From positions 936,690-1,000,689 of the forward strand of contig OY969472.1 of assembly GCA_963700155.1 (NCBI GenBank): a DNA stretch of 64,000 nt. Reading direction: 5' to 3'. Below are positions 4,426 to 39,670 of this stretch, piece by piece; position 1 is the stretch's first letter, and each line of letters begins with the position of its first letter. Both the position numbers and the translations under genes were made by a program. The stretch comes from an uncultured bacterium (GTDB lineage: Bacteria > Patescibacteriota > Dojkabacteria > J137). The notes under the pieces were generated by a model. It was not told the DNA's origin. It searched no databases and saw only the letters and a list, made by a program, of their open reading frames with translations.

Positions 4426-4470
4426 ATGGGGTAGAACATGGTGTAGAGTTAGAGAATTATTCATACAAAG
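4426..4470. repeat. 45-nt direct repeat copy 2 (see 2596..2640).
   Basis: Seen directly. Confidence 0.6.
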
Positions 4471-12050: not shown

Positions 12051-12065
12051 CTTATTCGAGACACA

Positions 12066-12596: not shown

Positions 12597-12689
12597 AAAT
12601 ATAAAATATAAAAAATAAAATAATAAACTAAAAGTTTATTTCATCTTTAATACTGTTCTGGGAATTAACTGAGGCTATAGATAGCAAAA

Positions 12690-12809: not shown

Positions 12810-12945
12810 GATACCATGCCTATATTTGCATATCGGTTTAGGTCTCAGATATTGAATTATAATATAAAGGTGAAATTAACAAAAGTTTTTGGACGATATT
12901 AATAAAGAAGAAGTATAATTCTTAAAATTAAATATAAGCATTAAT

Positions 12946-13953: not shown

Positions 13954-13980
13954 GTAAATTCCAGCTAAGCACTTCTACTC

Positions 13981-14007
13981 CAGCCGAACTCGGCTGACCT
14001 TTCTTTC
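13981..14007 (+). terminator. Hairpin cagccgaactcggctg followed by a T-rich run.
   Basis: Perfect 7-bp stem 28 nt after the stop of the 12946..13953 gene. Confidence 0.4.
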
Positions 14008-14041
14008 ATAAAATTTCCTCATAACTTTTAAAAATATAAGT

Positions 14042-14290
14042 ATGAAGAAAGAAGCCCAACATTTTAACACATTCGACCTAAATCTTGCTGCGGTTCTCCT
14101 TGCTAAAGGTTACATTCTTGAACAAGTTCAAAGAAATTCTAATGGCAAATCTCTATTTGTTTTTGATGAGTCAGATGCCTTGAAAAAACTAATAGAAAAG
14201 TACTGGAAAGGGAATCTTAAAATGAATCCCCAAGATGTATTCACAAGCCTAAAGGTCATTAAGAATAGGCTTTACAGCAGTTATTCATAA
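14042..14290 (+). CDS. Small hypothetical protein.
   Basis: ORF only. Confidence 0.35.
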   Translation: MKKEAQHFNTFDLNLAAVLLAKGYILEQVQRNSNGKSLFVFDESDALKKLIEKYWKGNLKMNPQDVFTSLKVIKNRLYSSYS

Positions 14291-14448
14291 ACCTATGGAA
14301 AAGGAGAGTCTTGATAAATTTAAAATTATTTTCAAGAAGGTTTATGGGATAGACCTGAGTGAAGCTCAAGCCCTCGATTTAGCAACTAATTTGCTCAATT
14401 TATATCGGGCAGTCTACAAAGAAAATCTAAATATTAATATTAAAAAAT

Positions 14449-14919
14449 ATGAAAAGGAAATACAATCTACGAAAAATCAAGACTAAAAGGTCTTATACTT
14501 CCGAAGAGCTTGCAGAAACTTTAAAAGTCCATGTTCAAACTGTTCATGACTGGAAAAGAAATGGATTACTACCCCTTGAAGAAAAAACTTCGCCGCATCT
14601 GTTTCTTGGAACTGAAGTTAAAAGTTTTCTTACAAAATTTGTATCTAAGCATAAGGTCTCTCTGAAAGAAGGAGAATTTTATTGTTTATCTTGTAAAAAT
14701 GCAGTGAAACCAACAAGTTTTGAATCAATCAGAAGAGGAATTACCATCGGGAACTCCAGAGAATCGCTCATACTTAAAGCGACTTGTCCAATATGTTCAA
14801 AAGTCGTGCATAGATTTAGTAGTGCTCCATTAATTGCTGAAGCGGAAAAGCACTTAGTTCCTAAACAAATCCGAAAAACAACAGATTTAGAAAAGGATTC
14901 AATTATGCTATTTGACTAA
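14449..14919 (+). CDS. Excisionase/MerR-like HTH (HTH_17-type) protein with a C-terminal Cys4 zinc ribbon.
   Basis: YTSEELAETLKVHVQTVHDWKRNGLLP matches the Xis/AlpA-type HTH. CLSCKN...CPICSK. Lies upstream of a tyrosine integrase. Confidence 0.4.
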   Translation: MKRKYNLRKIKTKRSYTSEELAETLKVHVQTVHDWKRNGLLPLEEKTSPHLFLGTEVKSFLTKFVSKHKVSLKEGEFYCLSCKNAVKPTSFESIRRGITIGNSRESLILKATCPICSKVVHRFSSAPLIAEAEKHLVPKQIRKTTDLEKDSIMLFD

Positions 14920-14951
14920 TAGAAAGTTAATTTATTTTTTATATAAAGTTT

Positions 14952-15386
14952 ATGAGAGCATCAAATTTATTTCAAATTTTGGATTTATCCAAAGACGTAG
15001 TAGCTGAAGTTAATATCTCTGATTTAATTAAATCGGGATTAGTATTGAATGAGGATTATGAGATTAAAAAGGATTTTTTATATAGCCAACCCGTTAAAAA
15101 TGATGGTGTGTTTTCTTTAGATATAACGAGAAGTAACGGTTGGTTTGGAAATATTGAAATACATTTCGCCTTTTTTATTGATACTAGTGAGAGCGATGAA
15201 AATATCCATATATCGCAGGAAGTGAGAATTGTGAAGAATAAAAATGGAAAATTGCAATTTGTTTGTCCAATTTTAGGTGGTGAAAATTTATGCTCAACTC
15301 TCTATTTGAGAAACGATTTTCCACTCTTTGGCTCAGATGAGGGTCTAAATGTGGGTTGGTGGCTAAAAAGTGCTCGAAGAGATTAA
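14952..15386 (+). CDS. Hypothetical protein.
   Basis: ORF only. Confidence 0.35.
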   Translation: MRASNLFQILDLSKDVVAEVNISDLIKSGLVLNEDYEIKKDFLYSQPVKNDGVFSLDITRSNGWFGNIEIHFAFFIDTSESDENIHISQEVRIVKNKNGKLQFVCPILGGENLCSTLYLRNDFPLFGSDEGLNVGWWLKSARRD

Positions 15387-15448
15387 CTAGGTTTTACAAA
15401 GTCCGTTATAACACTCGATTATGAACATTATCTTTTATTACAAATTAT

Positions 15449-16555
15449 ATGGCCAAGAACAAAGCAAAAAACGAAAAAATCAAACGAAAATATTTTGATT
15501 GGTTGCGAGGTGCTGAAGGTTTTTCAGATTTAACAATTGATGCAGTTGAAAAAGCAATCTGGAAATATGAAGAATTTACGAAAGAAGCCGATTATGGTGA
15601 ATTTAATGATAAAGTCGCAACGCAATTCAAAAAATGGCTTTCAACTGCAAAGAATCCAAGAACAGGGAATACTTTATCATTAACATCTCAGTACCATATT
15701 TTAAGGCATTTAAACTCACTTTTTGTGTGGCTTTCTGGGCAGGTCGGGTATAAATCAAAAGTCTCAACTTCTGATATTAGATACTTGAGATTGAGCAAAG
15801 AAGATTCAAGAAAAGCAACAAGTCCTAAACTTCCAAAATACCCTAGTCTTAGCTACATAAAGAAACTTTGCAGTTTTGAAGTTAATGATGAGATGGATAG
15901 AAGAGATAGAGCCTTAATTGCTTTTACAGCACTTTCAGGAATGAGAGATAGAGCAATCATTACTCTACCGATTTGCTGTTTTGATGTTCAAAAATTAGTT
16001 GTTTATCAAGACCCGACCAAAGGAGTTCATACTAAATTTTCAAAATCTATAATTACAACAATATTTAGATTTGATAAAGAACTTTTGGAGTATATTCTTG
16101 ACTGGCAAACGTATTTAACTGAGGAGAAAATGTTTACAGGTGAGAATCCGCTTTTCCCAAGCACACTAATAGAACTTGAGAGTGAAGTTAATCATTCTTT
16201 TGTCGCAAAAGGAGTGGAACCAATCTTCTGGAAAAATGCAGGAGCAATGAGAAAGATATTTCAAAACAGAGCAAAAGAAACTGGGCTGGATTATTTTTCG
16301 CCCCACAAATTTAGGCATTTTGCAATTAACGAAGCCCAGAAGTATGTAAACAATGCCGAAGAATTAAAAGCCGTCAGTCAAAATGTAGGACATGAGAATT
16401 TAACAACAACATTTTTCGGGTATGGAGGAATAGATGACTTCAGGGTTACAGAGATTATCGGTAATATGAACTTTGAGAAAAATAAGTCAAAAAGGAAACT
16501 AGATAAAGACACCATTGAAAAGCTGAAAGATTTATTGAACGAACAAGATGAGTGA
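15449..16555 (+). CDS. Tyrosine site-specific recombinase (phage-integrase family).
   Basis: R-containing box I (SGMRDRAII), HKFRHF (HxxR) and GHENLTTTFFGYGG with the catalytic Tyr. Confidence 0.7.
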   Translation: MAKNKAKNEKIKRKYFDWLRGAEGFSDLTIDAVEKAIWKYEEFTKEADYGEFNDKVATQFKKWLSTAKNPRTGNTLSLTSQYHILRHLNSLFVWLSGQVGYKSKVSTSDIRYLRLSKEDSRKATSPKLPKYPSLSYIKKLCSFEVNDEMDRRDRALIAFTALSGMRDRAIITLPICCFDVQKLVVYQDPTKGVHTKFSKSIITTIFRFDKELLEYILDWQTYLTEEKMFTGENPLFPSTLIELESEVNHSFVAKGVEPIFWKNAGAMRKIFQNRAKETGLDYFSPHKFRHFAINEAQKYVNNAEELKAVSQNVGHENLTTTFFGYGGIDDFRVTEIIGNMNFEKNKSKRKLDKDTIEKLKDLLNEQDE

Positions 16556-16621
16556 TATAAGGTTTATTTATAGAAACTATTGATTTAAAATGTACACATA
16601 TTTAACTCTTAATATAAAGCT

Positions 16622-17365
16622 ATGGAATTGAAAGACAAAGTTGTTTTGATAACAGGCTCTTCGAGCGGAATTGGGAAAGCCATTGCTATTAGATTAGCAA
16701 GTGAGGGAGCGAAGATTGTTATTAACTATAATTCTAACAAGGAAGGTGGGGAATCTACATTAAGTGAGATTCAAAGTTTAGGTAATGAAGGTCTGGTGGT
16801 TCAAGCAGATATTAGTGATGAATCTCAGGCGGAAAATCTAGTAAAAACAGTTATAGATAAGTTTGGAACAATCGATATTCTTGTTAATAATGCAGGGGGT
16901 TATATCGATGGTGATGATTGGAATGGTGAGAGCGAAGCATGGCTTAAAACTTTTCAAAAAAATATTCTTTCTGTAATGAATGTTTCTAAATATGTTCTCA
17001 GAGAATTTATTGAAGCTAAAAAAGGAAATATTGTTAGCATTGCAACAAGATATTCACTTTCAGGTCAATATGATTCACCAGCCTACTCTGCTTCAAAAGC
17101 AGGTATTGTAAATCTAACTCAAGGTTATGCAAAACTACTTTCACCGTTTGGAAGAGCAAATTGCATATCACCTGGAGCTGTAGAAGCTGGTTACTGGCTA
17201 AGAGCACCAAAAGAAGAGCTTGATGAAACTTTGGAAACAATTCCATTTAAAAGATTGATAAGTAAAGAGGAAGTTGCAGAAATGGTTTTTTACCTATCCT
17301 CTGAGCATTCTAAATCTATTACAGGTCAAAATTTTTTAATTGATGGAGGATTTAATTTAAAATAA
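16622..17365 (+). CDS. Short-chain dehydrogenase/reductase (SDR, FabG-like).
   Basis: TGSSSGIGKAIA, NNAG, YSASKAG. Confidence 0.8.
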   Translation: MELKDKVVLITGSSSGIGKAIAIRLASEGAKIVINYNSNKEGGESTLSEIQSLGNEGLVVQADISDESQAENLVKTVIDKFGTIDILVNNAGGYIDGDDWNGESEAWLKTFQKNILSVMNVSKYVLREFIEAKKGNIVSIATRYSLSGQYDSPAYSASKAGIVNLTQGYAKLLSPFGRANCISPGAVEAGYWLRAPKEELDETLETIPFKRLISKEEVAEMVFYLSSEHSKSITGQNFLIDGGFNLK

Positions 17366-17386
17366 TTTAATTTTTAAATAATAGAA

Positions 17387-17872
17387 ATGAATGCAGAGCC
17401 AAATCCAGAACACTTGAGAGAAATTCAAAGAGAGATTGTTTCAGGGCTTATTTTCTCAAAAGATGGGAAACTACTTGTTGGCAAAAAAGACCCGAATAAA
17501 GGTGGTGTATACGCTGATTGTTGGCATATTCCAGGAGGTGGAGTTGATGAAGGAGAAGATAAAATGACCACTTTAAAAAGAGAAATTAGAGAGGAAACAA
17601 ATTTAGATGTTGAGGGAGCTGAGCTTGAATTAGTTGATGATACTGGTCGTGGTTCAACAGAAAAGACATTGAAAGATACAGGTGAAAAAGTATGGTGCAA
17701 TATGAATTTTAATGTGTACAGGGTAAGGTTAAATAGAAATGCTTCTGAGATTGAATTAAATCCATCTGATGATTTAGTTGAATTAAAGTGGGTAGATATT
17801 TCTGAACTTAAGGAGCTTAAGCTAACACCACCAAGTATTGAATTGTTTAAAAGACTTGGATATATAGATTAG
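17387..17872 (+). CDS. NUDIX hydrolase.
   Basis: Nudix box GGGVDEGEDKMTTLKREIREETNL. Confidence 0.75.
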   Translation: MNAEPNPEHLREIQREIVSGLIFSKDGKLLVGKKDPNKGGVYADCWHIPGGGVDEGEDKMTTLKREIREETNLDVEGAELELVDDTGRGSTEKTLKDTGEKVWCNMNFNVYRVRLNRNASEIELNPSDDLVELKWVDISELKELKLTPPSIELFKRLGYID

Positions 17873-17901
17873 AGAATAAAATTTAAAATATAAGTATAAA
17901 T

Positions 17902-19557
17902 ATGCTTCAGGAAAAAGATTTTACAAAAAATAGATATATCCTTTATGCAAGGAAGTCTTCTGAATCTGAAGATAGACAGGTTGCTTCAATAGCATCACAG
18001 ATTGATGCTATGCAAGAGATTGCAAAGGAGTTGAAAATAAAAATTGTTGAAGTGATGAGCGAATCGAGTTCTGGTTTCCATGTAGGTAGGAATGTCTTTA
18101 ATTCAATGGTTGAAAAGATACATAAAGGCGAGGCAGACGGAATCATTGTCTGGAAACTTTCAAGACTATCAAGGAATCCTGATGATGCTGGAAGAATAAT
18201 GGGTATGTTACAACGGGAAGAAATTAAGCATATAAGGACTGTTGATAGAAACTGGTTTCCTGAAGACAATGTAATGATGATGTATGTTGAGTTCGGCGTA
18301 ACAAATCAGTTCAGCCGAGATTTAAGTGTTGATACAAGTAGAGGTTTATTAAAGAAAGCTCAAAGAGGCTGGTCGCCAATCTCTACTCTTCCTCTTGGTT
18401 ATATGCACAGCCCGTATAAGAAGCTAGGCGATGAAGAAATTATCCCTGACCCTGAAAGATTCGAAATTGTAAAAGAAGGTTTAAAACAAGTTGCTTCAAA
18501 TAGACTTACTCCAATGCAGTCCTTAGATTTTGTTTTAGAAAAAGGTTTAAAAACCAGAAAAGGAAAGCCGATAGGTGAAAGTGTGTGGTATCGAATACTC
18601 ATAAATCCTTTCTTTTATGGAACTTTTGAATTTCCGCAGAAAAGTGGAAGATTTTATGAAGGCAAACATACTCAAGCTATAACTCAAGAAGAATATAATC
18701 AAATTCAACATCAACTCGGCAGGAAGGACAGTCCTAGACCTAAAAAATGGTATTTCCCATACACTGGAATGATGAAATGTGGAGTTTGCGGTTGTTCAAT
18801 AATTGCAGACCCTAAATTTAAACATCAAAAGAATGGGAATGAACATGACTATGTTTATTATAGATGTACTAAAAAACGAGGTAATTGCGACCAGAGAAGC
18901 CTCGAAGTTGATGACTTGGAAATACAGTTCACAGATATAATTTCAAATATACGAGTACCTGATGGCTTCCATGAATGGGCAATGGAAGAGCTTCAAAAAG
19001 ACCATCAAAAGGAAATTGTAGAAAGAGGTGAATCTTATGAGAGAGCAAAGGCAAAATACGAGGAAGTTGTTAAAAAGATTGATGATTTAGTTGAGGGCTA
19101 TTTAGGAAAGAAAATTCCAGAAGAAACTTACGATAGAAAGTTGCCTGAATATCAAAAAGAACAGAATATCTTAAAAGGTATTCTTGATAGCTCAGATTTA
19201 AGAATAAAAGAATGGATTAACAAAGCTGATGAAGTTCTTGATTTTGCAACTAAAGCAAAATATGAATTTGAACATGGCGATGATAAAAAGAGAAAAGAGA
19301 TAGTTTCGTTTCTCGGCTCGAACCTCATTTTAAAAGACAGGATACTTAGCCTAGACTTAAAAAAGCCTCTGGAAGTTATTCAATCTGTTTCTGGGGAATT
19401 AAATGTCATTGCTGAAAAGTTCGAACCTCTCAATAGCTCAAATAGCAAAGAAGAATTTAAAGAATTTCTATCTACAAATGTCACATGGGGTGGAATCTGG
19501 GACGAATTTAAGAACTATTTAATTAATACTACTAGCAATTTTGTCATGAGTACCTAA
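17902..19557 (+). CDS. Large serine recombinase (resolvase/invertase domain, recombinase domain, zinc ribbon).
   Basis: YARKSSESEDRQ...SIASQ (catalytic Ser), LSRLSRN, CGVCGCS...YYRC. Confidence 0.8.
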   Translation: MLQEKDFTKNRYILYARKSSESEDRQVASIASQIDAMQEIAKELKIKIVEVMSESSSGFHVGRNVFNSMVEKIHKGEADGIIVWKLSRLSRNPDDAGRIMGMLQREEIKHIRTVDRNWFPEDNVMMMYVEFGVTNQFSRDLSVDTSRGLLKKAQRGWSPISTLPLGYMHSPYKKLGDEEIIPDPERFEIVKEGLKQVASNRLTPMQSLDFVLEKGLKTRKGKPIGESVWYRILINPFFYGTFEFPQKSGRFYEGKHTQAITQEEYNQIQHQLGRKDSPRPKKWYFPYTGMMKCGVCGCSIIADPKFKHQKNGNEHDYVYYRCTKKRGNCDQRSLEVDDLEIQFTDIISNIRVPDGFHEWAMEELQKDHQKEIVERGESYERAKAKYEEVVKKIDDLVEGYLGKKIPEETYDRKLPEYQKEQNILKGILDSSDLRIKEWINKADEVLDFATKAKYEFEHGDDKKRKEIVSFLGSNLILKDRILSLDLKKPLEVIQSVSGELNVIAEKFEPLNSSNSKEEFKEFLSTNVTWGGIWDEFKNYLINTTSNFVMST

Positions 19558-20292
19558 TATCAAATCTACTTGTTTAATCATCTCACTTGGCTGTAAGGAC
19601 ATGTCTTCAACTATTGAAGCAATGTTCTCAATTTCGTTTTCACAATTAAGAACCTTGAGCGATTCCCTAACGGGGACAGTGTTAAGTATTATGTAAGATT
19701 TCTTAATAGAATCTGTCACCTCCATTTGCAATTTGTTATAATTTTTATATAGTTCTCTTAACTCACAATTACTACAAAGACAGTAATCTATAATACAATC
19801 CCTATATCTTTTTTCCTTAAAACATATTACCCCCATTGCTAGGTATGCCTTACCCATCATATACCAATCTGAAGTTCTCATGCCATCTGAGAGCTGTTTA
19901 TTAAGAAGCCCCCACTCAACATCACTATCACTTGCAGGAGAACCAAATCTTTTAGATAATATGTTTTTAATAGACTGGAATTCTTCTCGGTGCTTTATTA
20001 ACTCATCATATGTACCATTGATTTTTGCCCATTCTAATTCCACTTCATCAGTCTGTAACTTGGTTAATGAAAGTTTCTCTTTTGTGTAAGGATGAGTTCT
20101 ACTATATATGTATTTCCCACAATTAGGACATTTTGTTTTAGCTTTAACTACTTTAACTAAAATTGAAGAACAATAAGGACAGATTTTTTGAGAAGATCTA
20201 ATATAATTATCCCCAAACTCACAAGTATTGGATTTATTGACTTTTTTTGTGGTTGAAAAGATTGTATTGACTATCCTCTTTATAATCGCCAT
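19519..20292 (-). CDS. Hypothetical zinc-ribbon protein (CPYCSS...CPNCGK).
   Basis: ORF with Cys4 motif. Confidence 0.4.
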   Translation of the reverse strand: MAIIKRIVNTIFSTTKKVNKSNTCEFGDNYIRSSQKICPYCSSILVKVVKAKTKCPNCGKYIYSRTHPYTKEKLSLTKLQTDEVELEWAKINGTYDELIKHREEFQSIKNILSKRFGSPASDSDVEWGLLNKQLSDGMRTSDWYMMGKAYLAMGVICFKEKRYRDCIIDYCLCSNCELRELYKNYNKLQMEVTDSIKKSYIILNTVPVRESLKVLNCENEIENIASIVEDMSLQPSEMIKQVDLILGTHDKIASSIN

Positions 20293-20306
20293 TAAACTAT
20301 TATGAA

Positions 20307-20573
20307 TTAATTGATTTTTTTAGAGCACCCTTTTTTAATCTCATCATCAGTAAACCCAAACTTTTTTATTTGTTGAATTATCATTTTAACGTAAAATGGA
20401 CCAACATTAGTTGAAATTATTATAAATGGTGGTTGATTTGAATCTTTTTCAGGAGATTTATTCGGATGAATGAATTTGTAGTTATGTTTACCAGCTCCAA
20501 CATCATTAAACCCCAGATTATATAGTAATGATATTAAATTCTTAAAATTTTTTGGAGGGAACTCTGATTTCAC
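20307..20573 (-). CDS. HicA-like mRNA-interferase toxin (YcfA/HicA family), divergent form.
   Basis: NLISLLYNLGF...GKHNYKFIHPNK parallels the HicA LLE..GW...R..GSHH.F.HP pattern. Confidence 0.4.
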   Translation of the reverse strand: MKSEFPPKNFKNLISLLYNLGFNDVGAGKHNYKFIHPNKSPEKDSNQPPFIIISTNVGPFYVKMIIQQIKKFGFTDDEIKKGCSKKIN

Positions 20574-20968
20574 TTTCCAATATATCTAACCTTCTCCTCA
20601 GTCTTAAATATTTTATTACCTAATCCCTCACTGCCAACAGATACAACATCTCCATTCTTATCTTGGACTACAAAGTCTTTAGCAGAGATTCGCTTATTAT
20701 AATAATGTGGAACATCAAAATACACAAAAAGTGCATCTTTTATCCTGTCAGCTATAGATTGACTGTCCGGAGAAAAAACCATAAAGCCAGGTAATGAATC
20801 AGCAATGAGAGTATAACCTGACTCATCTGAATGTACTTTTAAATCCAAATCTACAGGAATTTTTTTTAAGTTTTCCAAATTTAATTCTGGAGGTCTACTA
20901 CGAATATCGTAGTTGACAATTTCATTTAAATCCCTAATGAGTTTTTTGAGGATGAATTTGTAGTACAT
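20570..20968 (-). CDS. HicB-like antitoxin (UPF0150 / RNase H-like fold).
   Basis: ESGYTLIADSLPGFMVFSPDSQSIADRIKDAL matches the HicB GY.A..P.LPGC...G.T.EEA pattern. Overlaps the HicA-like gene by 4 nt. Confidence 0.4.
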   Translation of the reverse strand: MYYKFILKKLIRDLNEIVNYDIRSRPPELNLENLKKIPVDLDLKVHSDESGYTLIADSLPGFMVFSPDSQSIADRIKDALFVYFDVPHYYNKRISAKDFVVQDKNGDVVSVGSEGLGNKIFKTEEKVRYIGK

Positions 20969-21350
20969 GATATATTTAAATTAAGTTATAGATTATATTA
21001 TTATATTGTTTATATGTCCATCTATTAACGATATTATGTTAGAAGAAGAAATGACCATACTTATAGTATATATTATTTTTGATAAAGTTATAAGAATTTC
21101 AGTTTAATCTTTCAAATTTGATGGTAGGTGATCTATTATTATTTGAGTTTTTTCACATATTTGTTATCTAATTTGGGATTCAAAGGCAAATCTTTTTTAA
21201 GTTGATTGGGAGGCACTTTTTAGCTTAAGAATATCGATTTTACGCTTATTTCGTCAAGAAGTTTAAGTATCGTGTATCTTAACTATACGGTACCTTTTAT
21301 AATTTAGCTATACCCCACTTGTGGATATCCCCTATGATTAAACTAGAATA

Positions 21351-21800
21351 TTAATAAAATATGCTATAAGGTAACCCGATATCCCAAGTCCGACTTTCAT
21401 TATCTTGAGCCTCACAAATGAATCTACTATCACCAGTATTCCCATAAATTGTATCTTCAAAGCAGGTGATGTATCCTAAACTAACATAACCTCCATTGGG
21501 AAAATAAATTTCTGTAAATCTGTCACCGTTACTGGCTACCTCAAGAGTGTAACAGTAATTATCTGGGTCATCATGAGGGTAATAGCAAGCCTTCATGGAT
21601 TTTGATCCAGTAAACTTCATTATTTTACTGGGATACTCGGCACCTATTCCAATAAATCCACCCACAGATTGTGAGTATTCATCGTTGGGATTTTTAAACC
21701 CATTTAATGCGTAGATTATGAAAGCAATTATAACTATAAGTACTATTAGATTGATACAACCACCACCGCTTCTCTGCTGTTCAAATTCATTTTCATTCAT
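21351..21800 (-). CDS. Small membrane/secreted hypothetical protein.
   Basis: ORF with an N-terminal TM segment. Confidence 0.35.
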   Translation of the reverse strand: MNENEFEQQRSGGGCINLIVLIVIIAFIIYALNGFKNPNDEYSQSVGGFIGIGAEYPSKIMKFTGSKSMKACYYPHDDPDNYCYTLEVASNGDRFTEIYFPNGGYVSLGYITCFEDTIYGNTGDSRFICEAQDNESRTWDIGLPYSIFY

Positions 21801-21807
21801 AGATTAC

Positions 21808-22410
21808 TCACTTATATAATTCATAACATTTATTTTCTGCTGAAGTTTTACGGTTATCTAATACACTTGCCTCACTTGTTGAAAGTTTGCAATTCCAACC
21901 ATCCGTTTTTTCATATCCATGAGAATCACAATTAGCACTCCAATCATTTTTATAATCTGTATATGCTTTGTCTAAACAATTGTTCAATGCTAATTTATTA
22001 TTATTTACAACATCATGGGTTGTAGTTGTAGGGTAGTAATCTTTTACTCTATTTATAGCCAAAACAACTGTCAAAGCAATTAGAAAGAAAGCAACAAATG
22101 CAATAATCTTTGTGGAATTAGTATTTGAAGATTTTAAAACTAACCATGCAATTAAACCTGCAATACCTCCAGCAATTGTTCCACTCAGAATATCAAGGTG
22201 ACTTATTTGTGATACCAAAGCTATACAACCAATTACAAATATCCAGGAGAAGAATTTCACTACAGAAGATGTTGTATTATTTACTTCCTTATACTTTTGG
22301 TGGTGATCATTTATATTCTCATTCAAAAATTCTCCACAGAATCTGCACTTTATCGCTGACTCTTTAATTTCCTCACCACAATATGGACAAGATTTATATC
22401 CTAGCTTCAT
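21808..22410 (-). CDS. Zinc-ribbon (CPYCGEEI...CRFCGE) membrane protein.
   Basis: ORF with an N-terminal Cys4 and 2-3 TM segments. Confidence 0.4.
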   Translation of the reverse strand: MKLGYKSCPYCGEEIKESAIKCRFCGEFLNENINDHHQKYKEVNNTTSSVVKFFSWIFVIGCIALVSQISHLDILSGTIAGGIAGLIAWLVLKSSNTNSTKIIAFVAFFLIALTVVLAINRVKDYYPTTTTHDVVNNNKLALNNCLDKAYTDYKNDWSANCDSHGYEKTDGWNCKLSTSEASVLDNRKTSAENKCYELYK

Positions 22411-22464
22411 AATATTGTATTAATATATTGGGATTTTACTACTTTGGAATCCAAATATAAAATA

Positions 22465-22890
22465 TTATTTTTCTCGATTTTTGTCTAAGTCTTTATAACT
22501 TATAGTATTAAGTATAAATTGAGTCCCATCTTCACCAGTTACCTCTTTTCTTTGACTATATAAAGACTTTTGTCGTCGTTCTAAGTATTTCCAAGAATCT
22601 TCTACTGAATTTGAATCTATAACTGCTCTCGCAATATTCTTTTTTGAAGCGATGGCAATGAATTGTTTTGCTCTTTCCATACTCTCTGTAAATTCGTCGG
22701 ATTGTTTCTCCCACTCATAATACGTATCTTTACTTATTCCTGAGTATAGACAAGCCTCTTCGACTGTAAAATCATTTCTAAATGCTTCGGTTAAATCCGA
22801 CATTACCCTTTCAGTTAATTTATATGTTGATTGCATTAGTTCTTTTAAAGTTTTGTTTGGTATTCCGTTCATAATATTAGTTGATAACAA
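22465..22890 (-). CDS. HTH-containing small protein, possibly a phage-type regulator or small terminase-like.
   Basis: TVEEACLYSGISKDTYYEW is HTH-like. Weak. Confidence 0.3.
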   Translation of the reverse strand: MLSTNIMNGIPNKTLKELMQSTYKLTERVMSDLTEAFRNDFTVEEACLYSGISKDTYYEWEKQSDEFTESMERAKQFIAIASKKNIARAVIDSNSVEDSWKYLERRQKSLYSQRKEVTGEDGTQFILNTISYKDLDKNREK

Positions 22891-23000
22891 ATACGTATCA
22901 GATGTATTATATCAACAAATTTTAAACTTGCTAAAACTTAAAACAGAAAATATAATTCATTAATAATTAACACTACAATTCCCTGCTTTCTTTTTAAGTA

Positions 23001-23951
23001 GTGTTAGAAGAAGGCGGGGATTTTTATATGAATATTGAAGTTAAGCACGATGATAATTCATTGTTATTAGAAGATTTGACTGACATTACTAAACTTCTAT
23101 ATCAAGACTTTGGAAACAATAAACTCCCAATCTTTTTTGTAGATGACAGTTACTTAATGAACGAAAAAGAGGAAACAAAAGTACTAACTAAAGAAGAATT
23201 AAAGTTCATTAATATTAACTTGCAAAATAATGAAAAATTTAAAGTTTATAATCTAAAATCTCATTATTCACTCTATTATCTAGTGGATTTTGAAATCATA
23301 ACTAGTTATCAGTCGATTAGGAATTACTTAAACCCTCATGATGATTTTTCATTGAGAACTTTACACGAATTCGGAGGCATTTGCTATTACGTCCAGCCGA
23401 ATATAGTTTTATTAAACTGGGCTAATGGCAATTTAATTAATATACTAACTGCGATATCGAAAATAAAGGGAATAGTTAATGAAATAAAATCTGATAGACA
23501 GTTAAAATACACATATGCAATACCTGATATCCTAGGTAGACATAAGTTTCAGATAATAATTGATAAAAATTCTAATAAAATTCTCTTAAAAGGATTGAGT
23601 GAAAGAATATATGACACAAAACTCATATGCGAAGATCAAAATGGTTTAACAACAAAAAATTGCAGATTACTAGAATATCTACGCTTAAATGTGGGAACAA
23701 CAGATACTTTGATCAAAAGAAAAATTATTGATGAGTTAAAAAAGTACAACGAATTTAAAAAAGATATAAAGACTCTCAGGTTCTACTTTAAGGAAATCCG
23801 TGACGCAATTAAAACAATTTTCCAGTTATCCAATGAGGATTATGCTGAATACTTCTTTGATACAAGCGATAAATTCGACTTAATATTAAAATGCGACATA
23901 ATTTATATTGAAAAACTTATTACACCCACTTACACACCCACTCAGAAATAG
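23001..23951 (+). CDS. Hypothetical protein.
   Basis: ORF only. Confidence 0.4.
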   Translation: MLEEGGDFYMNIEVKHDDNSLLLEDLTDITKLLYQDFGNNKLPIFFVDDSYLMNEKEETKVLTKEELKFININLQNNEKFKVYNLKSHYSLYYLVDFEIITSYQSIRNYLNPHDDFSLRTLHEFGGICYYVQPNIVLLNWANGNLINILTAISKIKGIVNEIKSDRQLKYTYAIPDILGRHKFQIIIDKNSNKILLKGLSERIYDTKLICEDQNGLTTKNCRLLEYLRLNVGTTDTLIKRKIIDELKKYNEFKKDIKTLRFYFKEIRDAIKTIFQLSNEDYAEYFFDTSDKFDLILKCDIIYIEKLITPTYTPTQK

Positions 23952-24055
23952 GCTATAACCTCCTGCAGACTTAATAAAATAGTCGTTCACCCACACTTCC
24001 ACCCACTCATCATTTAAAGATATTATCTACACAATTAATTTATCAAGATTTTACT

Positions 24056-24643
24056 GTGCCTGAATATCTAATTGAACTTGAAAATGAACATAAAAGAAGC
24101 TTATTACTTTTGAATAATATGCTATTCATCAACAAGGCTTTCCCTGAAGGTTCAGAAATACTTCGCAGAAATAAAAGAATCTATGAGCAGGAGATAATTC
24201 AATATAAAAATGATTTGGAAAGATCTGTTCTACAAGCAATTATAGATGAGCTCCCACCCGTACAGGTTAAATTGATTCTCTTGTTCAAATATTTAAATCA
24301 ACGATTTAGAGAACTTAGAAATTGTTTACATTTTATTAATTCACAAATGCCACAAACAAAAAATCTGAATAAAACTAAAACAGATTATATTTCAATAAAA
24401 ATTCAGAGGTCTAAGGAAATAGATATAAGAAAGGTTGTTGAATATTTAGGTTTAGAAGTTAAGTCAAATGATATTTTGAGATGTCCTTTCCACCAAGATA
24501 AAACTCCCTCCTTAAAGTTATATAGAAAAGAAAATCGCTTTAAATGTTATGGATGTAATGCATCAGGTGACTCAATAACTTTTGTTAGAAAATTCCAAAA
24601 CGTTGGATTTTTAGAAGCAATAGATTTTATTAATAAATTATGA
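24056..24643 (+). CDS. DNA primase CHC2-type zinc-finger protein (zinc-binding domain only).
   Basis: CPFHQDKTPSLKLYRKENRFKCYGCNASGDSITFV matches the DnaG/phage-primase CHC2 finger. Confidence 0.6.
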   Translation: MPEYLIELENEHKRSLLLLNNMLFINKAFPEGSEILRRNKRIYEQEIIQYKNDLERSVLQAIIDELPPVQVKLILLFKYLNQRFRELRNCLHFINSQMPQTKNLNKTKTDYISIKIQRSKEIDIRKVVEYLGLEVKSNDILRCPFHQDKTPSLKLYRKENRFKCYGCNASGDSITFVRKFQNVGFLEAIDFINKL

Positions 24644-25692
24644 ATGAGGATAGTTACTTTAAAGAAATCCTAGACGAAATCGGAGAATCAACTGAATTGA
24701 AAACCATTGAGTTAGAAGATGTTACAGAAGAAAACGTTAGTTTCTTAGTTAATCCTTATATAGTGAAAAACGGGATCAATCTGATTACTGCACCACAAAA
24801 AAGTTTGAAAAGCATGATCATTCTTTACTTATGCATATGTACTTTAAAAGGAGATCAGTTTTTAGATCATTTCCCAACCGAAAAGATTAATAAGGTGTTA
24901 TTAATTGATCAAGAAAATAGGAAATCTGCAGTTAAAAACAGAACTATAAGATTAGGTTATGAACCTCAAAATATTACCTTAATAGACCAGTATATTTATT
25001 TCGACAAAGATGAAGAAATTACAAATAAACTTATCTCATTAATTAAGGAGAAAGAAATTGACCTAGTAGTTATAGATACACTAAGAAGAACGAATTCTAA
25101 TCTTGATGAAAATTCAAGCAGGGATGTTAATAAATTTTTTGCAAGAATTCAACCCTTAAAAGATTACGCAACAGTAATAATAATTCATCATGAGACTAAA
25201 CCAACACCAATGAATAAAAATACCTATTACAGAGGTTCTGGAGATATCGTTGGTGCTGTAGATAGTCATATCTCATTGAAGAAAGGTGATACAAACAATG
25301 ATTCAGTAAATCTCACTTTGAAGCATGAAAATGCTAGATATTCTCAAGAGAATGAGCCTATAGAAATTAAATTTAACTTTACTGATAAAAGATTTTCTTT
25401 TACTTATAACGGAGATTCTAAAGAAAACTTCATACAAAAATTAGAAGCAGAGAAACAAGAAAGATTAGAAAATTTGCTTCAATTTATTCAAGATTCTGAA
25501 ACTGAAGGCAGAAACATCAAGGAAATAGAGGAATTTTGTAAAAAGAACTTTAATAAAGGAGAACATACAGCAAAGGAATATCGAGATACTTTATTATTAG
25601 GAGGAGCGATTCAAGAACATACAAAACCTTCAGATAAAAAAACATACTTTATTTATACAGATTTTGCACCTCAGCAGAGCAATATACTATAG
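24640..25692 (+). CDS. RecA-like AAA_25/RepA-type ATPase, a mobile-element replicative helicase-like protein.
   Basis: P-loop-like TAPQKSLKS and a Walker B-like DLVVIDTLRR. Translationally coupled to the primase zinc-finger gene. Confidence 0.45.
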   Translation: MNEDSYFKEILDEIGESTELKTIELEDVTEENVSFLVNPYIVKNGINLITAPQKSLKSMIILYLCICTLKGDQFLDHFPTEKINKVLLIDQENRKSAVKNRTIRLGYEPQNITLIDQYIYFDKDEEITNKLISLIKEKEIDLVVIDTLRRTNSNLDENSSRDVNKFFARIQPLKDYATVIIIHHETKPTPMNKNTYYRGSGDIVGAVDSHISLKKGDTNNDSVNLTLKHENARYSQENEPIEIKFNFTDKRFSFTYNGDSKENFIQKLEAEKQERLENLLQFIQDSETEGRNIKEIEEFCKKNFNKGEHTAKEYRDTLLLGGAIQEHTKPSDKKTYFIYTDFAPQQSNIL

Positions 25693-25842
25693 ATGTGAGG
25701 TGCTGAGGAGAAGAAATATATGTCTGAAGAATCTAAAAAGGAAATAATAGAATTCTTAAAATTATTATCTGATATACTTGCTGATCAAATTAAAAGAGGT
25801 GTTTATGTTTAACTTCTTACTAATTTTATATATAATCTTATT

Positions 25843-25940
25843 GCTATAACAAGTTAATGACGAATTTATTAAACGGGTATCCAGATACATGAGTTCGTCT
25901 CTTGTTATAGCACTGGATGCCCGTTTATTTTTTACTTTTA
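25843..25940 (+). terminator. Interleaved inverted repeats forming a terminator-like hairpin (25871..25884 / 25913..25926 plus T-tract). A second 11-bp inverted repeat (25843..25853 / 25901..25911) overlaps it in A-C-A'-C' order.
   Basis: Seen directly. Lies immediately upstream of the second serine recombinase. Confidence 0.4.
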
Positions 25941-25944
25941 GTTC

Positions 25945-27444
25945 ATGTATAACAATTCATACTTCTTATATTGTCGAAAATCTAGTGAGGATAGTAGACA
26001 GGCTTTATCAATACCTGCTCAACTTAGAGAACTCAAAGAATTTGCAGTTAAAAATGATTTAAGAATCATTAAAACCTTTCAAGAAGAGAAATCAGCACGA
26101 ATACCTAACAAAAGAAAAGAATTTAATGAAATGCTTTATCAAATTAAACAAGGCAAGGCAACTAAAATTTTGTGTTGGCATACAAATAGGCTAAGTAGAA
26201 ACCCTCAGGAATCTGGTGTACTTCAGCAAATGATAACTGATGAAACTATTGAGGAGATAAGAACTCCATTTGAAACAATCACCAAAGACACAAATGATGT
26301 TATGCTCGGTGTGTCTTTCGGTGGCAATTCACAATACTCAAAAGAGTTAAGTTACAACACTAAACGTGGAATGAGAGAAAAAGCCTATCGTGGTGAATGG
26401 TTAACTGGTGCTCCACCCTTTTATATTAACTTTGGAGATAAAAAAGGTTCAAAGAATATAAAACCAGATCCAGAGACTTCAAAATTTTATCTCCCATGGA
26501 TTCGTAGAATTATAAAAGAACGTTTAACCACTCGAGAAGCAACAAGGGTACTTAGGGAACTTGGTGTTCGTGCAAAATCAAATAAATTCTACTCAAGCTC
26601 AATGGTGCAAAGATTATTAAGGAATCCAATGTATTATGGTCTTCTACAATATGGAGATATAGAGAAGATTGGAACTTGGGAACCATTAATTGATAAATGT
26701 ACTTGGGACGATCTTCAAATGGTATTAGACAATAGGACAAAACCATATTTCACAAAGCATAATCATGCATATAGTAAATTAATAAAATGTAGTGATTGTG
26801 GTGGCTTTTTGATCGGTGTTACTAAAACTAAGAAGAGCGGGAAATCTTATACTTATTATTCGGTTAATAAATCAAATCATCCTGAATGTAAATGTCTGCC
26901 AATCAAAGAAATGGATCTTGATGAACTTTTTTGTAATGACATTGAAAAGCTTGAGATGTCAGAAAGTCAGGCTGAAACTATTCGTGAATATACAATCAAA
27001 AGATTAGAAGGAGATAAAACAAGTAATTCATTTGTAAAAATACAATATGACAAAGAAATTGCCGAAGTAAATGAAAATTTAGATGGATTATTAAAATTAA
27101 GACTGGCTGAGGAAATAACAAAAGAAGATTACAAATTAAATAAATCTAAGAATGAAATGAGGCTCTCTGAGCTTGAAGAACTTATCAGAGATTTAAACTT
27201 AAATCGGAGTGAGTTCAGAAATGAGGTGGAACTAATTCTAGAAGATTGTCTGATCGTTAAAAAAGTATTTGAACATGGTAATAATGAAGAAAAACGAAGA
27301 ATTGTACTTCAAATTACACAAGATATTTCATTTGATGGAAATTCGATTCGGTGGAACTTCAAAAAGCCTTATCAGACAATGGTAAAATTCAAAAATGAAC
27401 CTAAAAGTGAAAACTGGGGTGGTCGGTGGGGCTCGAACATTTAG
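25945..27444 (+). CDS. Large serine recombinase (second copy). The last 8 codons are encoded by a tRNA-His-derived 3' fragment.
   Basis: LYCRKSSEDSRQ...IPAQ, HTNRLSRN. The 3' end overlaps tRNA-like sequence ggtggtcggtggggctcgaac. Confidence 0.8.
   Translation: MYNNSYFLYCRKSSEDSRQALSIPAQLRELKEFAVKNDLRIIKTFQEEKSARIPNKRKEFNEMLYQIKQGKATKILCWHTNRLSRNPQESGVLQQMITDETIEEIRTPFETITKDTNDVMLGVSFGGNSQYSKELSYNTKRGMREKAYRGEWLTGAPPFYINFGDKKGSKNIKPDPETSKFYLPWIRRIIKERLTTREATRVLRELGVRAKSNKFYSSSMVQRLLRNPMYYGLLQYGDIEKIGTWEPLIDKCTWDDLQMVLDNRTKPYFTKHNHAYSKLIKCSDCGGFLIGVTKTKKSGKSYTYYSVNKSNHPECKCLPIKEMDLDELFCNDIEKLEMSESQAETIREYTIKRLEGDKTSNSFVKIQYDKEIAEVNENLDGLLKLRLAEEITKEDYKLNKSKNEMRLSELEELIRDLNLNRSEFRNEVELILEDCLIVKKVFEHGNNEEKRRIVLQITQDISFDGNSIRWNFKKPYQTMVKFKNEPKSENWGGRWGSNI
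27417..27438 (-). pseudogene. 3' fragment of a tRNA-His paralog: T-loop TTCGAGC, T-stem CCCAC, acceptor 3' strand CGACCAC, discriminator C, CC.
   Basis: The acceptor 3' strand is exactly complementary to the 5' fragment at 27573..27623. It lies within the recombinase C-terminus. Confidence 0.5.
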
Positions 27445-27462
27445 AGATGGCATATCCTGTTA

Positions 27463-27538
27463 GGGGTGGACAGTGGGGCTCGAACCCACGACAACTCGCT
27501 CCACAGGCGAGCGCTCTACCAACTGAGCTATGTCCACC
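27463..27538 (-). tRNA. tRNA-His (anticodon GTG) with a genomically encoded G-1 and no encoded CCA.
   Basis: Manual fold: G-1, acceptor GTGGACA/TGTCCAC, D arm GCTC-AGTTGGTA-GAGC, anticodon loop CTGTGGA, T arm GTGGG-TTCGAGC-CCCAC, discriminator C. Confidence 0.85.
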
Positions 27539-27572
27539 CCTAACAGGACATTAAGTACTAATAACTTTTATT

Positions 27573-27623
27573 CACGACAATCCCGATTAATCGGGACGCT
27601 CTACCAACTGAGCTACGACCACC
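27573..27623 (-). pseudogene. 5' fragment of a tRNA-His paralog: G-1, acceptor, D arm, an anticodon arm replaced by the perfect palindrome TCCCGATTAATCGGGA, variable region. The T arm is missing.
   Basis: About 85% identical to the intact tRNA-His 5' two-thirds. Ends at TTGTCGTG, then unrelated sequence. Confidence 0.5.
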
Positions 27624-27730
27624 ATCAATTTAGCTCTGTAATTATATCATCTAATATCCCCATAAATAAACCATTATAGGAGCTAAATAACTTACAAAAT
27701 GTTAGAATACATCATCATTATTAAACATTT

Positions 27731-37630: not shown

Positions 37631-38188
37631 ATGGATAATTTCGATAATGGATTAATTAAAAATCAGTTTATAGATAAGTTATATTATTCGATTTTTATGA
37701 AGATAGGACAAAGTAAGGGAGATACTAATATTGTATTAGCATTAGAAGAATTAGCAAATCTTGATGCTGAAAATAGGGTATCTACTGAAGAACTTCCTTC
37801 TTTACTAACTGCATTTAATGAAGTAAATTTATGGTTCTTATTTAATGGTGATGTTCTTTCTAACGAAGAAAAAATATTTCTAGAAAATTTGCTAGATAGA
37901 GTTGATAAAAAGATTCCGTATGTATATTCATCAGTAATTAACAAAATAGGGGAAAATTATGAAAATAGAGAGATTTCAAGATCATTTAGAGTTTTGTTGT
38001 ATTTAAGTTCAAGGTCTGATCTTATTGGTATTGAGCCAATTGATTTAGTTGAAGCATTTAGAAATTTTGATTATTGGTTTACTCTTAATAGCTATTTATT
38101 TAATAGAGATGAAATAAAGTCTATAAATGAATTGATAGAGGCTATACATCGCAAAATTCCTAGGAATGGTAATGGTCATTTGAATTAA
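37631..38188 (+). CDS. Hypothetical protein.
   Basis: ORF only. Confidence 0.4.
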   Translation: MDNFDNGLIKNQFIDKLYYSIFMKIGQSKGDTNIVLALEELANLDAENRVSTEELPSLLTAFNEVNLWFLFNGDVLSNEEKIFLENLLDRVDKKIPYVYSSVINKIGENYENREISRSFRVLLYLSSRSDLIGIEPIDLVEAFRNFDYWFTLNSYLFNRDEIKSINELIEAIHRKIPRNGNGHLN

Positions 38189-38212
38189 AGTTTGGAAGTT
38201 TTTGTTGTCGAG

Positions 38213-38238
38213 GGGCGGACCTTTCGGTCCGCCCTTTC
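38213..38238 (+). terminator. GC-rich perfect hairpin gggcggacc-tttc-ggtccgccc followed by TTTC, at the left edge of high-GC islet 2.
   Basis: Seen directly. Could terminate the 37631..38188 gene or be an element end. Confidence 0.4.
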
Positions 38239-38254
38239 AACAACTGGAAATGAA

Positions 38255-39214
38255 CTACTGCGCGAGCGGGTCGCTGACTTCGGCACAGACGCCTGGCTGC
38301 ACAACTTCGAAGAAGCGCAGCTCATTGAGCTGATTGCCGACCACCCGATAGGTCCCCTGGTAGGGGTATTCACTCGGGTTGGCGAACAACGCGATTTCGT
38401 AAACCGAGTGCTGATCATCGCCTTTGAACGTCTGGCTAACCCATCCGTCCCAGGGTGCCCATTCGGAGCCTTCCAGAACCTGCGGGTACATCGGTGGATT
38501 GATAGGCTCGACGACGTCTAGCATACACACGAATCCGCCACTCGGTGTCATACCGAGGCTGAACGGAACGACCGGCTCTTCAGGTTCGCCGGGCTGCGGT
38601 AATCCAAAAGTGAAAACGTAGCAGCCGAAAGTCATGCTTTCGATCACGCCGTCTCCGTGGACACCTGAACCCAACGAATATCCCACCGCGATAACTTGTG
38701 CGTTCGGGAACGCAACTGCCCATTCGGGCAGCGTTCCGAACCAGTTGCTACCGTTGCCGCCGCCGGTGTGCGGGGCGCCGGACTTGACGAATGCGGCGGC
38801 GCTGTTGGAGAGCCACCAATTATCGCCGTAAACTGCCTCCCCGACGAGAATCCCGTCGGGAGTGCCGTTGTTGTCGAAGTCCACTACGAGCTGTAAGCCC
38901 GGGGTGATGCCGAACGAGGCGACGTAGTCAATGTTGCCGGACGTGATGTTTGACAGCAGGACCGCGAACGGATAGTAGCCGGCTGCTTTATCGAGCGACG
39001 TGTTCGACTCGGTCCAGATATGCAAGCCATCGGCTTGCAGCTCGTTGTGACCTTGAGCACGTGTTTCGCTCAGATCCCAGTTTCCAAGGTTCGTCGTGTG
39101 GATGTTTCCACATGCCTGGACCTGGTTCGGCGAGGCGGCTAAAGGTGCGAACGTGGCGAATGCCAGAACGAAAACAATAGCCAGCGCGATCAATGTGAAA
39201 ACTTTCTTACTCAT
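38255..39214 (-). CDS. Secreted protein (signal peptide) encoded in a 55-60% GC islet, likely horizontally acquired.
   Basis: Long ORF with a signal peptide MSKKVFTLIALAIVFVLAFATFA. GC and codon usage contrast strongly with the flanks. Overlapping +-strand ORFs are artefacts of high GC. Confidence 0.5.
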   Translation of the reverse strand: MSKKVFTLIALAIVFVLAFATFAPLAASPNQVQACGNIHTTNLGNWDLSETRAQGHNELQADGLHIWTESNTSLDKAAGYYPFAVLLSNITSGNIDYVASFGITPGLQLVVDFDNNGTPDGILVGEAVYGDNWWLSNSAAAFVKSGAPHTGGGNGSNWFGTLPEWAVAFPNAQVIAVGYSLGSGVHGDGVIESMTFGCYVFTFGLPQPGEPEEPVVPFSLGMTPSGGFVCMLDVVEPINPPMYPQVLEGSEWAPWDGWVSQTFKGDDQHSVYEIALFANPSEYPYQGTYRVVGNQLNELRFFEVVQPGVCAEVSDPLAQ

Positions 39215-39267
39215 GGTTCTGTTACTCCTATAGAATATGAATTTGAATTCGAAATTTGCCGTTGCTA

Positions 39268-39327
39268 GATGCTTCGGCGGTTCAAAAGACTAAATTTAAT
39301 TTTAATCTCCAAAACCGCCGAAGCATC
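39268..39327. repeat. 15-bp perfect inverted repeat gatgcttcggcggtt / aaccgccgaagcatc with a 30-nt loop, at the right edge of high-GC islet 2.
   Basis: Seen directly. Followed by tttattgtagtttta. Confidence 0.45.
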
Positions 39328-39531
39328 TTTATTGTAGTTTTAATTTCCAGTTGTTAAAGAACATGTTCAGGGAATTTAATCCACTGATTATATTTATATT
39401 AATTCAGAAACAAATGTTATCTGTACTATATAAATTCAGATGGATTATATAACAAATATATACAAAAATCAAGAGTTGCTAAATATATAAAAGTCGCTAA
39501 CAAATCAAGATGGAAGAGTGTTTAATAGAAA

Positions 39532-39603
39532 TATGCCAGAGAGGATTCGAACCTCTGACCTGCCGCTTAGAAGGCGGCTGCTCTATCCACTGAGCTACTG
39601 GCA
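39532..39603 (-). tRNA. tRNA-Arg (anticodon TCT).
   Basis: Manual fold: acceptor GTGCCAG/CTGGCAT (G1-U72), D arm GCTC-AGTGGATA-GAGC, anticodon loop CTTCTAA, T arm AGAGG-TTCGAAT-CCTCT. Confidence 0.8.
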
Positions 39604-39670
39604 CACATTAACAGCAGGCATATTTTAACATTTAATTAAAAAATACTGAATACTTAAGAAGATGAATTAA

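Follow-up and report, generated by a model that had tools for sequence, protein, structure and literature searches.

How does a complete tRNA-His gene come to lie between the two halves of a second, broken tRNA-His gene, directly beside the gene of a large serine recombinase? We analyzed this arrangement in a 64,000-nt stretch of contig OY969472.1 (assembly GCA_963700155.1, forward-strand positions 936,690 to 1,000,689; hereafter the window) from an uncultured bacterium with a Dojkabacteria-type genome of 1.14 Mb. A sequence-only reading of the window had described the broken gene as a compound or fossil attachment site of the adjacent recombinase, or as the trace of tandem integrations at tRNA-His. 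Comparison with related genomes points instead to an explanation in two layers, to which we assign a probability of about 0.62: the nested tRNA-His locus is an old, inherited part of the host chromosome, and the recombinase-bearing elements are recent arrivals that docked on its outer copy.

The inner gene is an intact tRNA-His(GTG) at 27463..27538 on the minus strand, extending from G-1 to C73; its CCA is not encoded, and CCT follows. It was the single tRNA-His(GTG) called by ARAGORN (27463-27537, minus strand) and obtained 69.7 bits with the Rfam tRNA model, with every stem paired. The cloverleaf, the GTG in a 7-nt anticodon loop and the G-1:C73 pair are those of a functional tRNA-His. The outer copy, encoded on the same strand, consists of (i) a 5' part at 27573..27623, with G-1, the acceptor strand GTGGTCG, the D arm, an aberrant anticodon arm, the variable loop and the first 3 nt of the T stem, and (ii) a 3' part at 27415..27438, with G53, the T loop, the 3' strand of the T stem, the acceptor strand CGACCAC, C73 and an encoded CCA. 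The 3' part had been described as ending at 27417; it is present as described and runs on to 27415, so as to include the CCA. Direct repeats detected by a repeat finder link both parts to the intact gene: 27597-27623 matches its 5' end at 27512-27538 (D8; 27 nt, 93% identity), and 27416-27438 matches its 3' end at 27463-27485 (D16; 91% identity). On the minus strand, spacers of 34 nt (27539..27572) and 24 nt (27439..27462) separate the outer parts from the inner gene, and the last 13 nt of the former and the first 13 nt of the latter are the two arms of a stem that closes the inner tRNA. The same stem was recovered as a 21-nt inverted repeat bracketing the intact gene (I18; 27452-27472 / 27531-27551, 95% complementary), giving a closing stem of 18-21 bp. 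The remaining tRNA genes of the window have neither an encoded CCA nor flanking repeats.

The two outer parts are halves of one former gene that was split in the T arm. Their acceptor strands are fully complementary to each other, and the inner acceptor, GTGGACA / TGTCCAC, differs from them at two base pairs; G52 is the sole nucleotide missing between the halves. Rejoined in silico, they fold as a cloverleaf with a 6-nt anticodon loop, to which ARAGORN gave the label 'tRNA-???'. The anticodon arm is replaced by a perfect 16-nt palindrome, TCCCGATTAATCGGGA (27581..27596), which has a 6-nt loop and no GTG anticodon. The outer copy therefore fails as a functional tRNA, judged by a 7-nt loop and a usable anticodon kept in relatives: its arm differs between genomes. 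A search of the window with Infernal called the intact gene and neither outer fragment individually, as expected for partial genes. Thus, what the sequence-only reading had said of the anatomy, namely the intact gene between two fragments, the spacings, the complementary acceptors, the T-arm split, the flanking inverted repeat and the palindrome, is borne out by ARAGORN, Rfam, the repeat finder and direct reading.

Whether the recombinase made this arrangement can be judged from a relative (L009) that has the same gene order, with Obg ~77-80% identical and the flanking genes syntenic on both sides. Upstream of obg, L009 carries the same nested layout with no recombinase adjacent; host-type sequence follows. 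Its outer 5' part reads GGTGGACATAGCTCAGTTG, a 70-nt D-loop insertion and GTAGAGCGTCTCGACATTGTCGTGGGTT, and is followed by a spacer; the inner tRNA-His, with the paired flanks CTTGTTAGGG / CCCTAACAAG, is followed by the second spacer and by the outer 3' part TGTCGTGGGTTCGAGCCCCACTGTCCACCCCA, which ends in CCA. An 11-bp direct repeat, TGTCGTGGGTT, flanks the insert. A more distant relative, L091 (Obg 70% identical), has a simple single tRNA-His with an encoded CCA, followed by a terminator-like hairpin and a T-run. In the alignment, the inner tRNA body of the window, the inner tRNA of L009 and the tRNA-His body of L091 are the same, and the spacers and upstream region of the window can be aligned to L009, the spacers poorly so. 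The 70-nt insertion of L009 (~9680-9751, minus strand) lies exactly within the D loop of the outer copy, with no nucleotide of the D arm lost; it has internal hairpins and matched no Rfam family.

Because L009 has the same layout without a recombinase beside it, the nesting appears to predate the neighboring recombinase and is not supported as a product of its attachment. The sequence-only reading had itself named the same arrangement in a related genome, with no recombinase nearby, as evidence that would tell against its proposal, and L009 shows this arrangement, with homologous spacers. We thus consider it very improbable that the split gene is a compound or fossil attachment site, made by this recombinase or by tandem integrations, with the 135-bp insert as the remnant of an element. 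The abutment of the recombinase reading frame on the 3' fragment, the real tandem integrations at tRNA-His described below and the 11-bp repeat around the L009 insert, such as a site-specific event would leave, are all in its favor. It is largely refuted by L009; in addition, the junctions of this recombinase family are all placed at the tRNA 3' end (TGGGGT) and none in the T arm, and the insert lacks arms of the recombinase type. The 13-mer GTGGGGCTCGAAC, which had been put forward as an att-like core, and the T-arm core TTGTCGTGGGTTCGAG occur in the window only in the tRNA copies; the 13-mer, present at two of them, is not the crossover site.

The search of relatives for an empty site, which the same reading had recommended, yielded the simple single gene of L091 and an uninterrupted orthologous junction in L009, whose tRNA-His is nested as well. 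Beyond these genomes the arrangement was not recovered. Among Obg-based loci of 80 species genomes, no tRNA-His was found beside obg outside the closest relatives, and none was found there in L010, L092, L160 or L161. The nested cassette was present in L009 only among 162 loci, and a tRNA-His pattern scan gave 0 matches in genome contigs and 0 in viral contigs. A metagenome scan for the outer anticodon arm GAGCGTCCCGATTAATCGGGA returned one chance match, on an unrelated high-GC contig.

These comparisons suggest the following history for the first layer. In the common ancestor of this genome and L009, a single tRNA-His upstream of obg, as still seen in L091, would have been split in its T arm by a segment of ~135-150 bp carrying a second complete tRNA-His. 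The inner copy is then the working gene, closed by the 18-21-bp stem formed from its flanks. The outer copy, with its anticodon arm replaced in the window and deleted in L009, can no longer decode. It still retains ACCCCA-3' at its 3' end and, in front of its 5' end, the sole promoter-like motif that is conserved. The 11-bp repeat of L009 suggests that the T arm received the insert in one event. Candidate mechanisms are site-specific recombination of a cargo-losing element with its own tRNA-His, or a template-switch duplication.

The anticodon arm of the outer copy is not conserved: the 16-nt palindrome of the window has an 8-nt remnant, TCTCGACA, at the equivalent position of L009, and joining the outer halves of L009 yields nothing that is called as a tRNA. 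The degenerate anticodon regions nevertheless share derived features (GAGCG-T-C[C/T]CGA versus the ancestral GAGCG-CTCGCC), and a single origin of the nesting is therefore favored. It is improbable that nesting arose twice, or moved by homologous recombination with the spacer-tRNA-spacer cassette itself being mobile, in two lineages whose tRNA-His acceptor stems differed beforehand. Such a history would account for an outer acceptor that differs between the two genomes around a nearly identical inner tRNA and stem, and for the different insert junctions, with the 11-bp repeat retained in L009, and GGTT at one side and TGTCGTG at the opposite side missing from the window; the identity of ArsP (97%, against ~80% for Obg) hints at recent local exchange. 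Against it stand the shared derived anticodon features and the failure of the pattern scan and of the 162-locus search to find the cassette anywhere else than in L009.

The second layer concerns the recombinase, whose gene is the last one before the tRNA locus. The 499-aa protein (25945..27444, plus strand) contains the Pfam domains Resolvase (PF00239, 1.3e-18), Recombinase (PF07508, 7.9e-10) and Zn_ribbon_recom (PF13408, 6.8e-08) and matches the PHROG integrase family phrog_95 (7.8e-64). The catalytic motif Y9, R11, K12, S13 together with R82/S84/R85 is invariant across 28 family members. Its reading frame ends in ..NWGGRWGSNI*, encoded on the antisense of the outer tRNA 3' fragment; as the sequence-only reading had proposed, this fragment supplies the last codons of the enzyme, and the overlap of the reading frame with a tRNA-His 3' end recurs throughout the family. 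Among homologs, which are 40-48% identical, many C-termini read ..NWGGRWDSNPRPSVPQTDALTN, i.e. the whole tRNA translated antisense, and others stop at ..EWGG. In L003, in L004/L005 and for the second recombinase of L007, the recombinase gene overlaps at its end with the 3' end (..CCACCCCA) of an intact tRNA-His(GTG) that is encoded on the other strand. L007 contains a tandem array in the order tRNA-His, recombinase B, element B, recombinase A. At the join, which has the sequence GAATGGGGTGCG, the left end of element B provides the tail codons of recombinase A. The core TGGGGT is also present in L003, L004 and L007. The far element ends of L003 and L004 were searched for tRNA pieces and none were found, which fits a recombinase that needs no homology. 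This family-wide overlap indicates that the tRNA-His 3' end is the chromosomal site of a clade of large serine recombinases found in candidate-phyla bacteria.

A search of viral contigs with the single recombinase protein gave nothing. With the family alignment, the viral contigs yielded distant relatives only (<=33% identity), many of them beside antisense tRNAs of other identities; tRNA targeting is thus a trait of the wider clade. The LVDTIMN-like tail motif of some homologs does not occur in the window.

Three copies of the core, all on the plus strand, delimit a tandem array of elements in the window. The right end is the TGGGGT at 27415..27420, the antisense of A71-A76 of the outer tRNA. 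The second core, at 19486..19491, is the junction of elements 2 and 1, where a second large serine recombinase (551 aa, 17902..19557, plus strand; 27% identical to the first) reaches its ..T W G G. The left end (4427..4460) consists of a TGGGGT, in the context gacaaTGGGGTagaacatggtg at 4427-4432, followed by AGAACATGGTGTAGAG.., a degenerate arm resembling a tRNA 3' end; the orthologous junction in L009 lies at 7195-7235. The outer flanks of the three junctions are unrelated, and TGGGGTGG occurs in the window at 19486 and 27415 only. Thus, tandem integration at tRNA-His, and an attachment site for the adjacent recombinase, had been rightly suspected: the cores at 4427, 19486 and 27415, the overlap of the reading frame and the contig ends discussed below all speak for them. 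The elements docked on the outer copy, whose 3' end gives TGGGGT, and not on the working gene, which reads AGGGGT at the same place, and successive integrations, in an inferred order, built the 23-kb island at 4433-27414.

The crossover probably falls at a dinucleotide inside TGGGGT, which encodes the W-G codons of the recombinase. With the crossover within these codons, integration swaps the C-terminal tail of the enzyme. The second recombinase illustrates the exchange: it ends ..TWGG|IWDEFKNYL.., its last 20 codons being supplied by the left end of element 1, and this tail of the element-1 type, IWDEFKNYL, starts at 19494. Excision of element 1 would, in the same way, give the 499-aa enzyme the tail IWDEFKNYLINTTSNFVMST in place of RWGSNI. 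Its two variants would thus be ..WGGRWGSNI and the predicted ..WGGIWDEFKNYLINTTSNFVMST.

Evidence on the island boundaries came from Logan contigs, which are derived from graphs built from 31-mers (PMC12424806). The independent 23,042-nt contig ERR11571143_911 corresponds exactly to positions 4403-27444 of the window. It opens with the 30 nt up to and including the final base of the left core and closes with the 30 nt that start at the right core's first base. This is the pattern of a k=31 branch expected if the sample also holds the empty site gacaaTGGGGTggtcgg; a circle junction alone would instead produce contig ends at 4427 and 27420. The right junction of L009, tattatagacttTGGGGTggacag, next to the 3' end of the outer tRNA, is the orthologue of this empty site. 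We predict the full empty-site sequence as CAGACAGATAAATGTTATAGACAATGGGGTGGTCGGTGGGGCTCGAACATTTAG, with GACAATGGGGTGGTCGG as the diagnostic string, and the circle junctions as CCTAAAAGTGAAAACTGGGGTGGAATCTGGGACGAATTTAAG for element 1 and GTGAAAACTGGGGTAGAACATGGTGTAGAG for the whole island. Since the island boundaries fall at both cores, the island is 4433-27414 and the recombinase-proximal junction is an ordinary one, made of recombinase 3' end, core and tRNA 3' arm; the statement of the sequence-only reading that this is not a simple attL was thus not upheld.

The same contigs bear on the possibility that the nested locus is an assembly artefact from collapsed or chimeric repeats around the tRNA. 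Breaks in the ERR11571143 contigs at 27444 and 27581 leave the middle 136 bp without independent confirmation from that sample. The first of these breaks is accounted for by the island boundary, the repeats are shorter than 31 nt and imperfect, and the parts are ordered identically in L009, which was assembled independently from a different sample. Consequently, we hold an artefact to be extremely improbable.

How the nested locus is expressed was considered from its flanking signals. The motif TGnTATAAT is conserved in the window, L009 and L091; in the first two it precedes the outer 5' end by ~17-20 nt, and in L091 it lies upstream of the single gene. In the window it is the extended -10-like motif TGATATAAT (27641..27649, minus strand), 17 nt upstream of the G-1 of the outer copy, and it is likely the promoter of the whole unit. 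No comparable conserved motif was found 5' of the inner gene, and on this ground the inner tRNA is probably excised from one transcript that covers the whole nested unit. A two-hexamer sigma-70 promoter scan of the window gave no full match, and promoter and terminator scans together returned no full consensus sites. In the predicted RNA fold, the outer halves pair with each other and the long inner stem is formed, with z = -6.5 in the window and z = -3.3 in L009.

Such a fold raises the question of whether the outer halves are kept as an RNA shell, composed of a closing helix of the acceptor type with pieces of the D and T arms, that aids expression or processing of the inner tRNA, and perhaps serves as a decoy docking site diverting recombinase elements from the working gene. 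The outer fragments of the window and L009 differ at 2 of 29 nt and 2 of 24 nt (~92% identical), next to poorly alignable spacers. All four differences form two compensatory pairs in the acceptor helix, T5:A68 and G7:C66 in the window versus A5:T68 and A7:T66 in L009, so that no pair is broken, and the inner closing stem shows one further double compensatory change (C:G versus T:A). The paired fold, the location of the one conserved -10-like motif ahead of the outer 5' part and the integration of the elements at the outer rather than the inner 3' end also agree with a function of the shell. However, the outer acceptor of L009 is identical to the inner acceptor of L009, and gene conversion from the inner copy would give the same seemingly compensatory pattern without selection. 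Moreover, several parts of the outer copy are not preserved, namely its anticodon arm, its T stem, which is incomplete in the window, and its D loop, which holds the 70-nt insertion in L009; no known bacterial processing pathway needs such a shell. Since the comparison comprises two genomes only, selection and gene conversion are not separable. On balance, a functional nested unit seems unlikely to us, and its more specific form, in which the shell is a selected transcription and processing unit for the only tRNA-His of the cell and the CCA-bearing tip a decoy landing pad, decidedly unlikely.

Several observations weigh against the explanation by an old nested locus overlaid with recent elements. 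Nesting was seen in just two independent genomes, and one of them, L009, resembles a long-read assembly and may contain indel errors (it has a truncated obg, and the 3' strand of its inner acceptor reads TGCTCAC). The outer fragments are far better conserved than the spacers, which is unexpected for a plain pseudogene; gene conversion from the inner copy would explain it. Neither integrase nor transposase remnants lie in the insert, and its two ends do not form inverted repeats. As for the recent layer, the presence of the empty site in ERR11571143 is deduced from contig ends, and a second Logan contig of the same sample starts at 27581, the first base of the palindrome, a break that the island boundary does not explain.

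Some other candidates for the origin of the split were rejected. An archaeal-type split or intron-containing tRNA does not fit the continuous helices of the predicted folds, which show no bulge-helix-bulge, nor the outer copy without an anticodon, nor the bacterial host. For a group I intron, no Rfam intron match was found at E<=10, and the 135-nt insert in the T arm is mostly tRNA. A transposon or MITE is at odds with the position of the 11-bp repeat of L009, 20-24 nt from the inverted repeat, and with insert ends that are not inverted copies. A tmRNA-like reading of the insert was also considered and rejected.

Comparison with known systems places the two layers differently. Tandem arrays of integrative elements at tRNA genes are well known, e.g. 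from Islander/TIGER mapping (PMC7192596). The island described here shares with them a tRNA docking site, a core restored at both ends, stacked elements and a relic resembling a tRNA 3' end at the far end (4427-4460). It differs from the usual tRNA islands by (i) large serine recombinases instead of tyrosine integrases, (ii) a 6-bp core, and (iii) docking on a non-functional outer copy. The enzymes have the resolvase, recombinase and zinc-ribbon set and the invariant nucleophile motif of phiC31, Bxb1, A118 and TP901-1; short att sites of minimal identity and an integrase gene at the element end are further features of the phiC31 type. Unlike in that type, the site is a tRNA 3' end and the crossover lies within the open reading frame of the enzyme itself (W-G-G), replacing the last 7-20 residues; no directionality factor was identified here.

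Integrases of the SSV1 type from archaea are tyrosine recombinases that have the attP inside the integrase gene and a tRNA as the target, and integration splits the gene. The system in the window likewise has an attachment site that overlaps the integrase reading frame and a tRNA target, and its integrated and free forms encode different proteins. In contrast to SSV1, only the C-terminal tail is exchanged, and the enzyme is complete in both states. The filamentous phage phiRSM reportedly integrates at a tRNA-Ser 3' end by means of a small resolvase-like serine recombinase. Our case resembles it in the use of a tRNA 3' end by a serine recombinase and differs in that the recombinase is a large one; we know of no overlap between the reading frame and the tRNA for the phiRSM enzyme. 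Serine recombinases at tRNA 3' ends are thus rare but not unprecedented.

For disrupted tRNA genes, a mobile-element model was proposed in Caldiarchaeum, and the pieces of disrupted archaeal tRNAs are spliced, with an insert other than a tRNA (PMC3293823). The locus in the window is similar to the split, permuted and multi-intron tRNA genes of archaea and algae in its non-canonical interruption, in fragments lying near recombinase genes and in the mobile-element origin proposed for it. In those cases, however, the pieces are spliced to a working tRNA via a bulge-helix-bulge, whereas here the host is bacterial, the outer copy has no usable anticodon, and the 'intron' is a working tRNA of the same identity. 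In the literature on nested tRNAs and on tRNA within tRNA, we found no bacterial description of a disrupted tRNA gene whose T arm contains a complete paralogue of itself, in an arrangement inherited across deep divergence. The recombinase layer belongs to a known kind, and the nested tRNA-His is an unusual inherited variant of tRNA-locus remodelling of uncertain function.

The recombinase clade gives ready attB and attP predictions and provides a natural case in which integration changes the tail of the enzyme. The 23-kb island appears to be absent from part of the sampled population of this Dojkabacteria genome. If the outer shell is under selection, the locus would represent a new form of tRNA gene organisation; otherwise, it would be a clean example of tRNA loci being remodelled by mobile DNA. 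In either case, it gives a warning that tRNA fragments beside an integrase need not belong to the attachment site of that integrase.

Similar scars were observed at a different tRNA. The IMG/VR contig L116 (~12045-12412, minus strand) carries a complete tRNA-Ser(GCT) whose 5' end is repeated, as a 17-nt copy, 98 nt upstream, and a GGAGACG...GAATCCTCTCGTCTCC shell downstream of it. In L009, a ~50-nt flank (atgttagaac..tattatagacNNTGGGGT) is present twice, at 7150-7210 and 9440-9491, bracketing 2.2 kb; after one copy comes the tRNA-like arm, after the other the real tRNA. This duplicated flank is probably the remnant of another integration.

The left junction of the island adjoins an ars operon (2666-4253; 5436-7049 in L009), where synteny with L009 is retained and homology runs on to 4478. 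ArsP of this operon is 97% identical to that of L009, compared with 50-88% for Obg and the other flanking proteins, and the operon may have been exchanged recently.

Within the island, element 1 (~7.9 kb, 19494..27414, plus strand) encodes unknown proteins, a small-terminase-like protein, a primase zinc ribbon, an AAA_25 helicase and the 499-aa recombinase. Its gene set resembles that of a phage satellite: the small-terminase-like protein (22465-22890) matches phrog_4102 (4e-14), and there are no structural genes. The left part of the island (4433-19485) encodes a BpuJI-like restriction enzyme (7965-9386), a C5 methylase (9383-10420), AbiV (11328-12050) and a tyrosine integrase (15449-16555); a second DNA methylase was called on the Logan contig matching the island. 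An Rfam LOOT RNA (RF03000) was also detected within the island at 12708-12844 on the minus strand, with 53.8 bits against a gathering score of 46.4. Elsewhere in the window, the GC content rises to 0.42-0.44 at 38000-40000 and 42000-44000, against a background of ~0.31.

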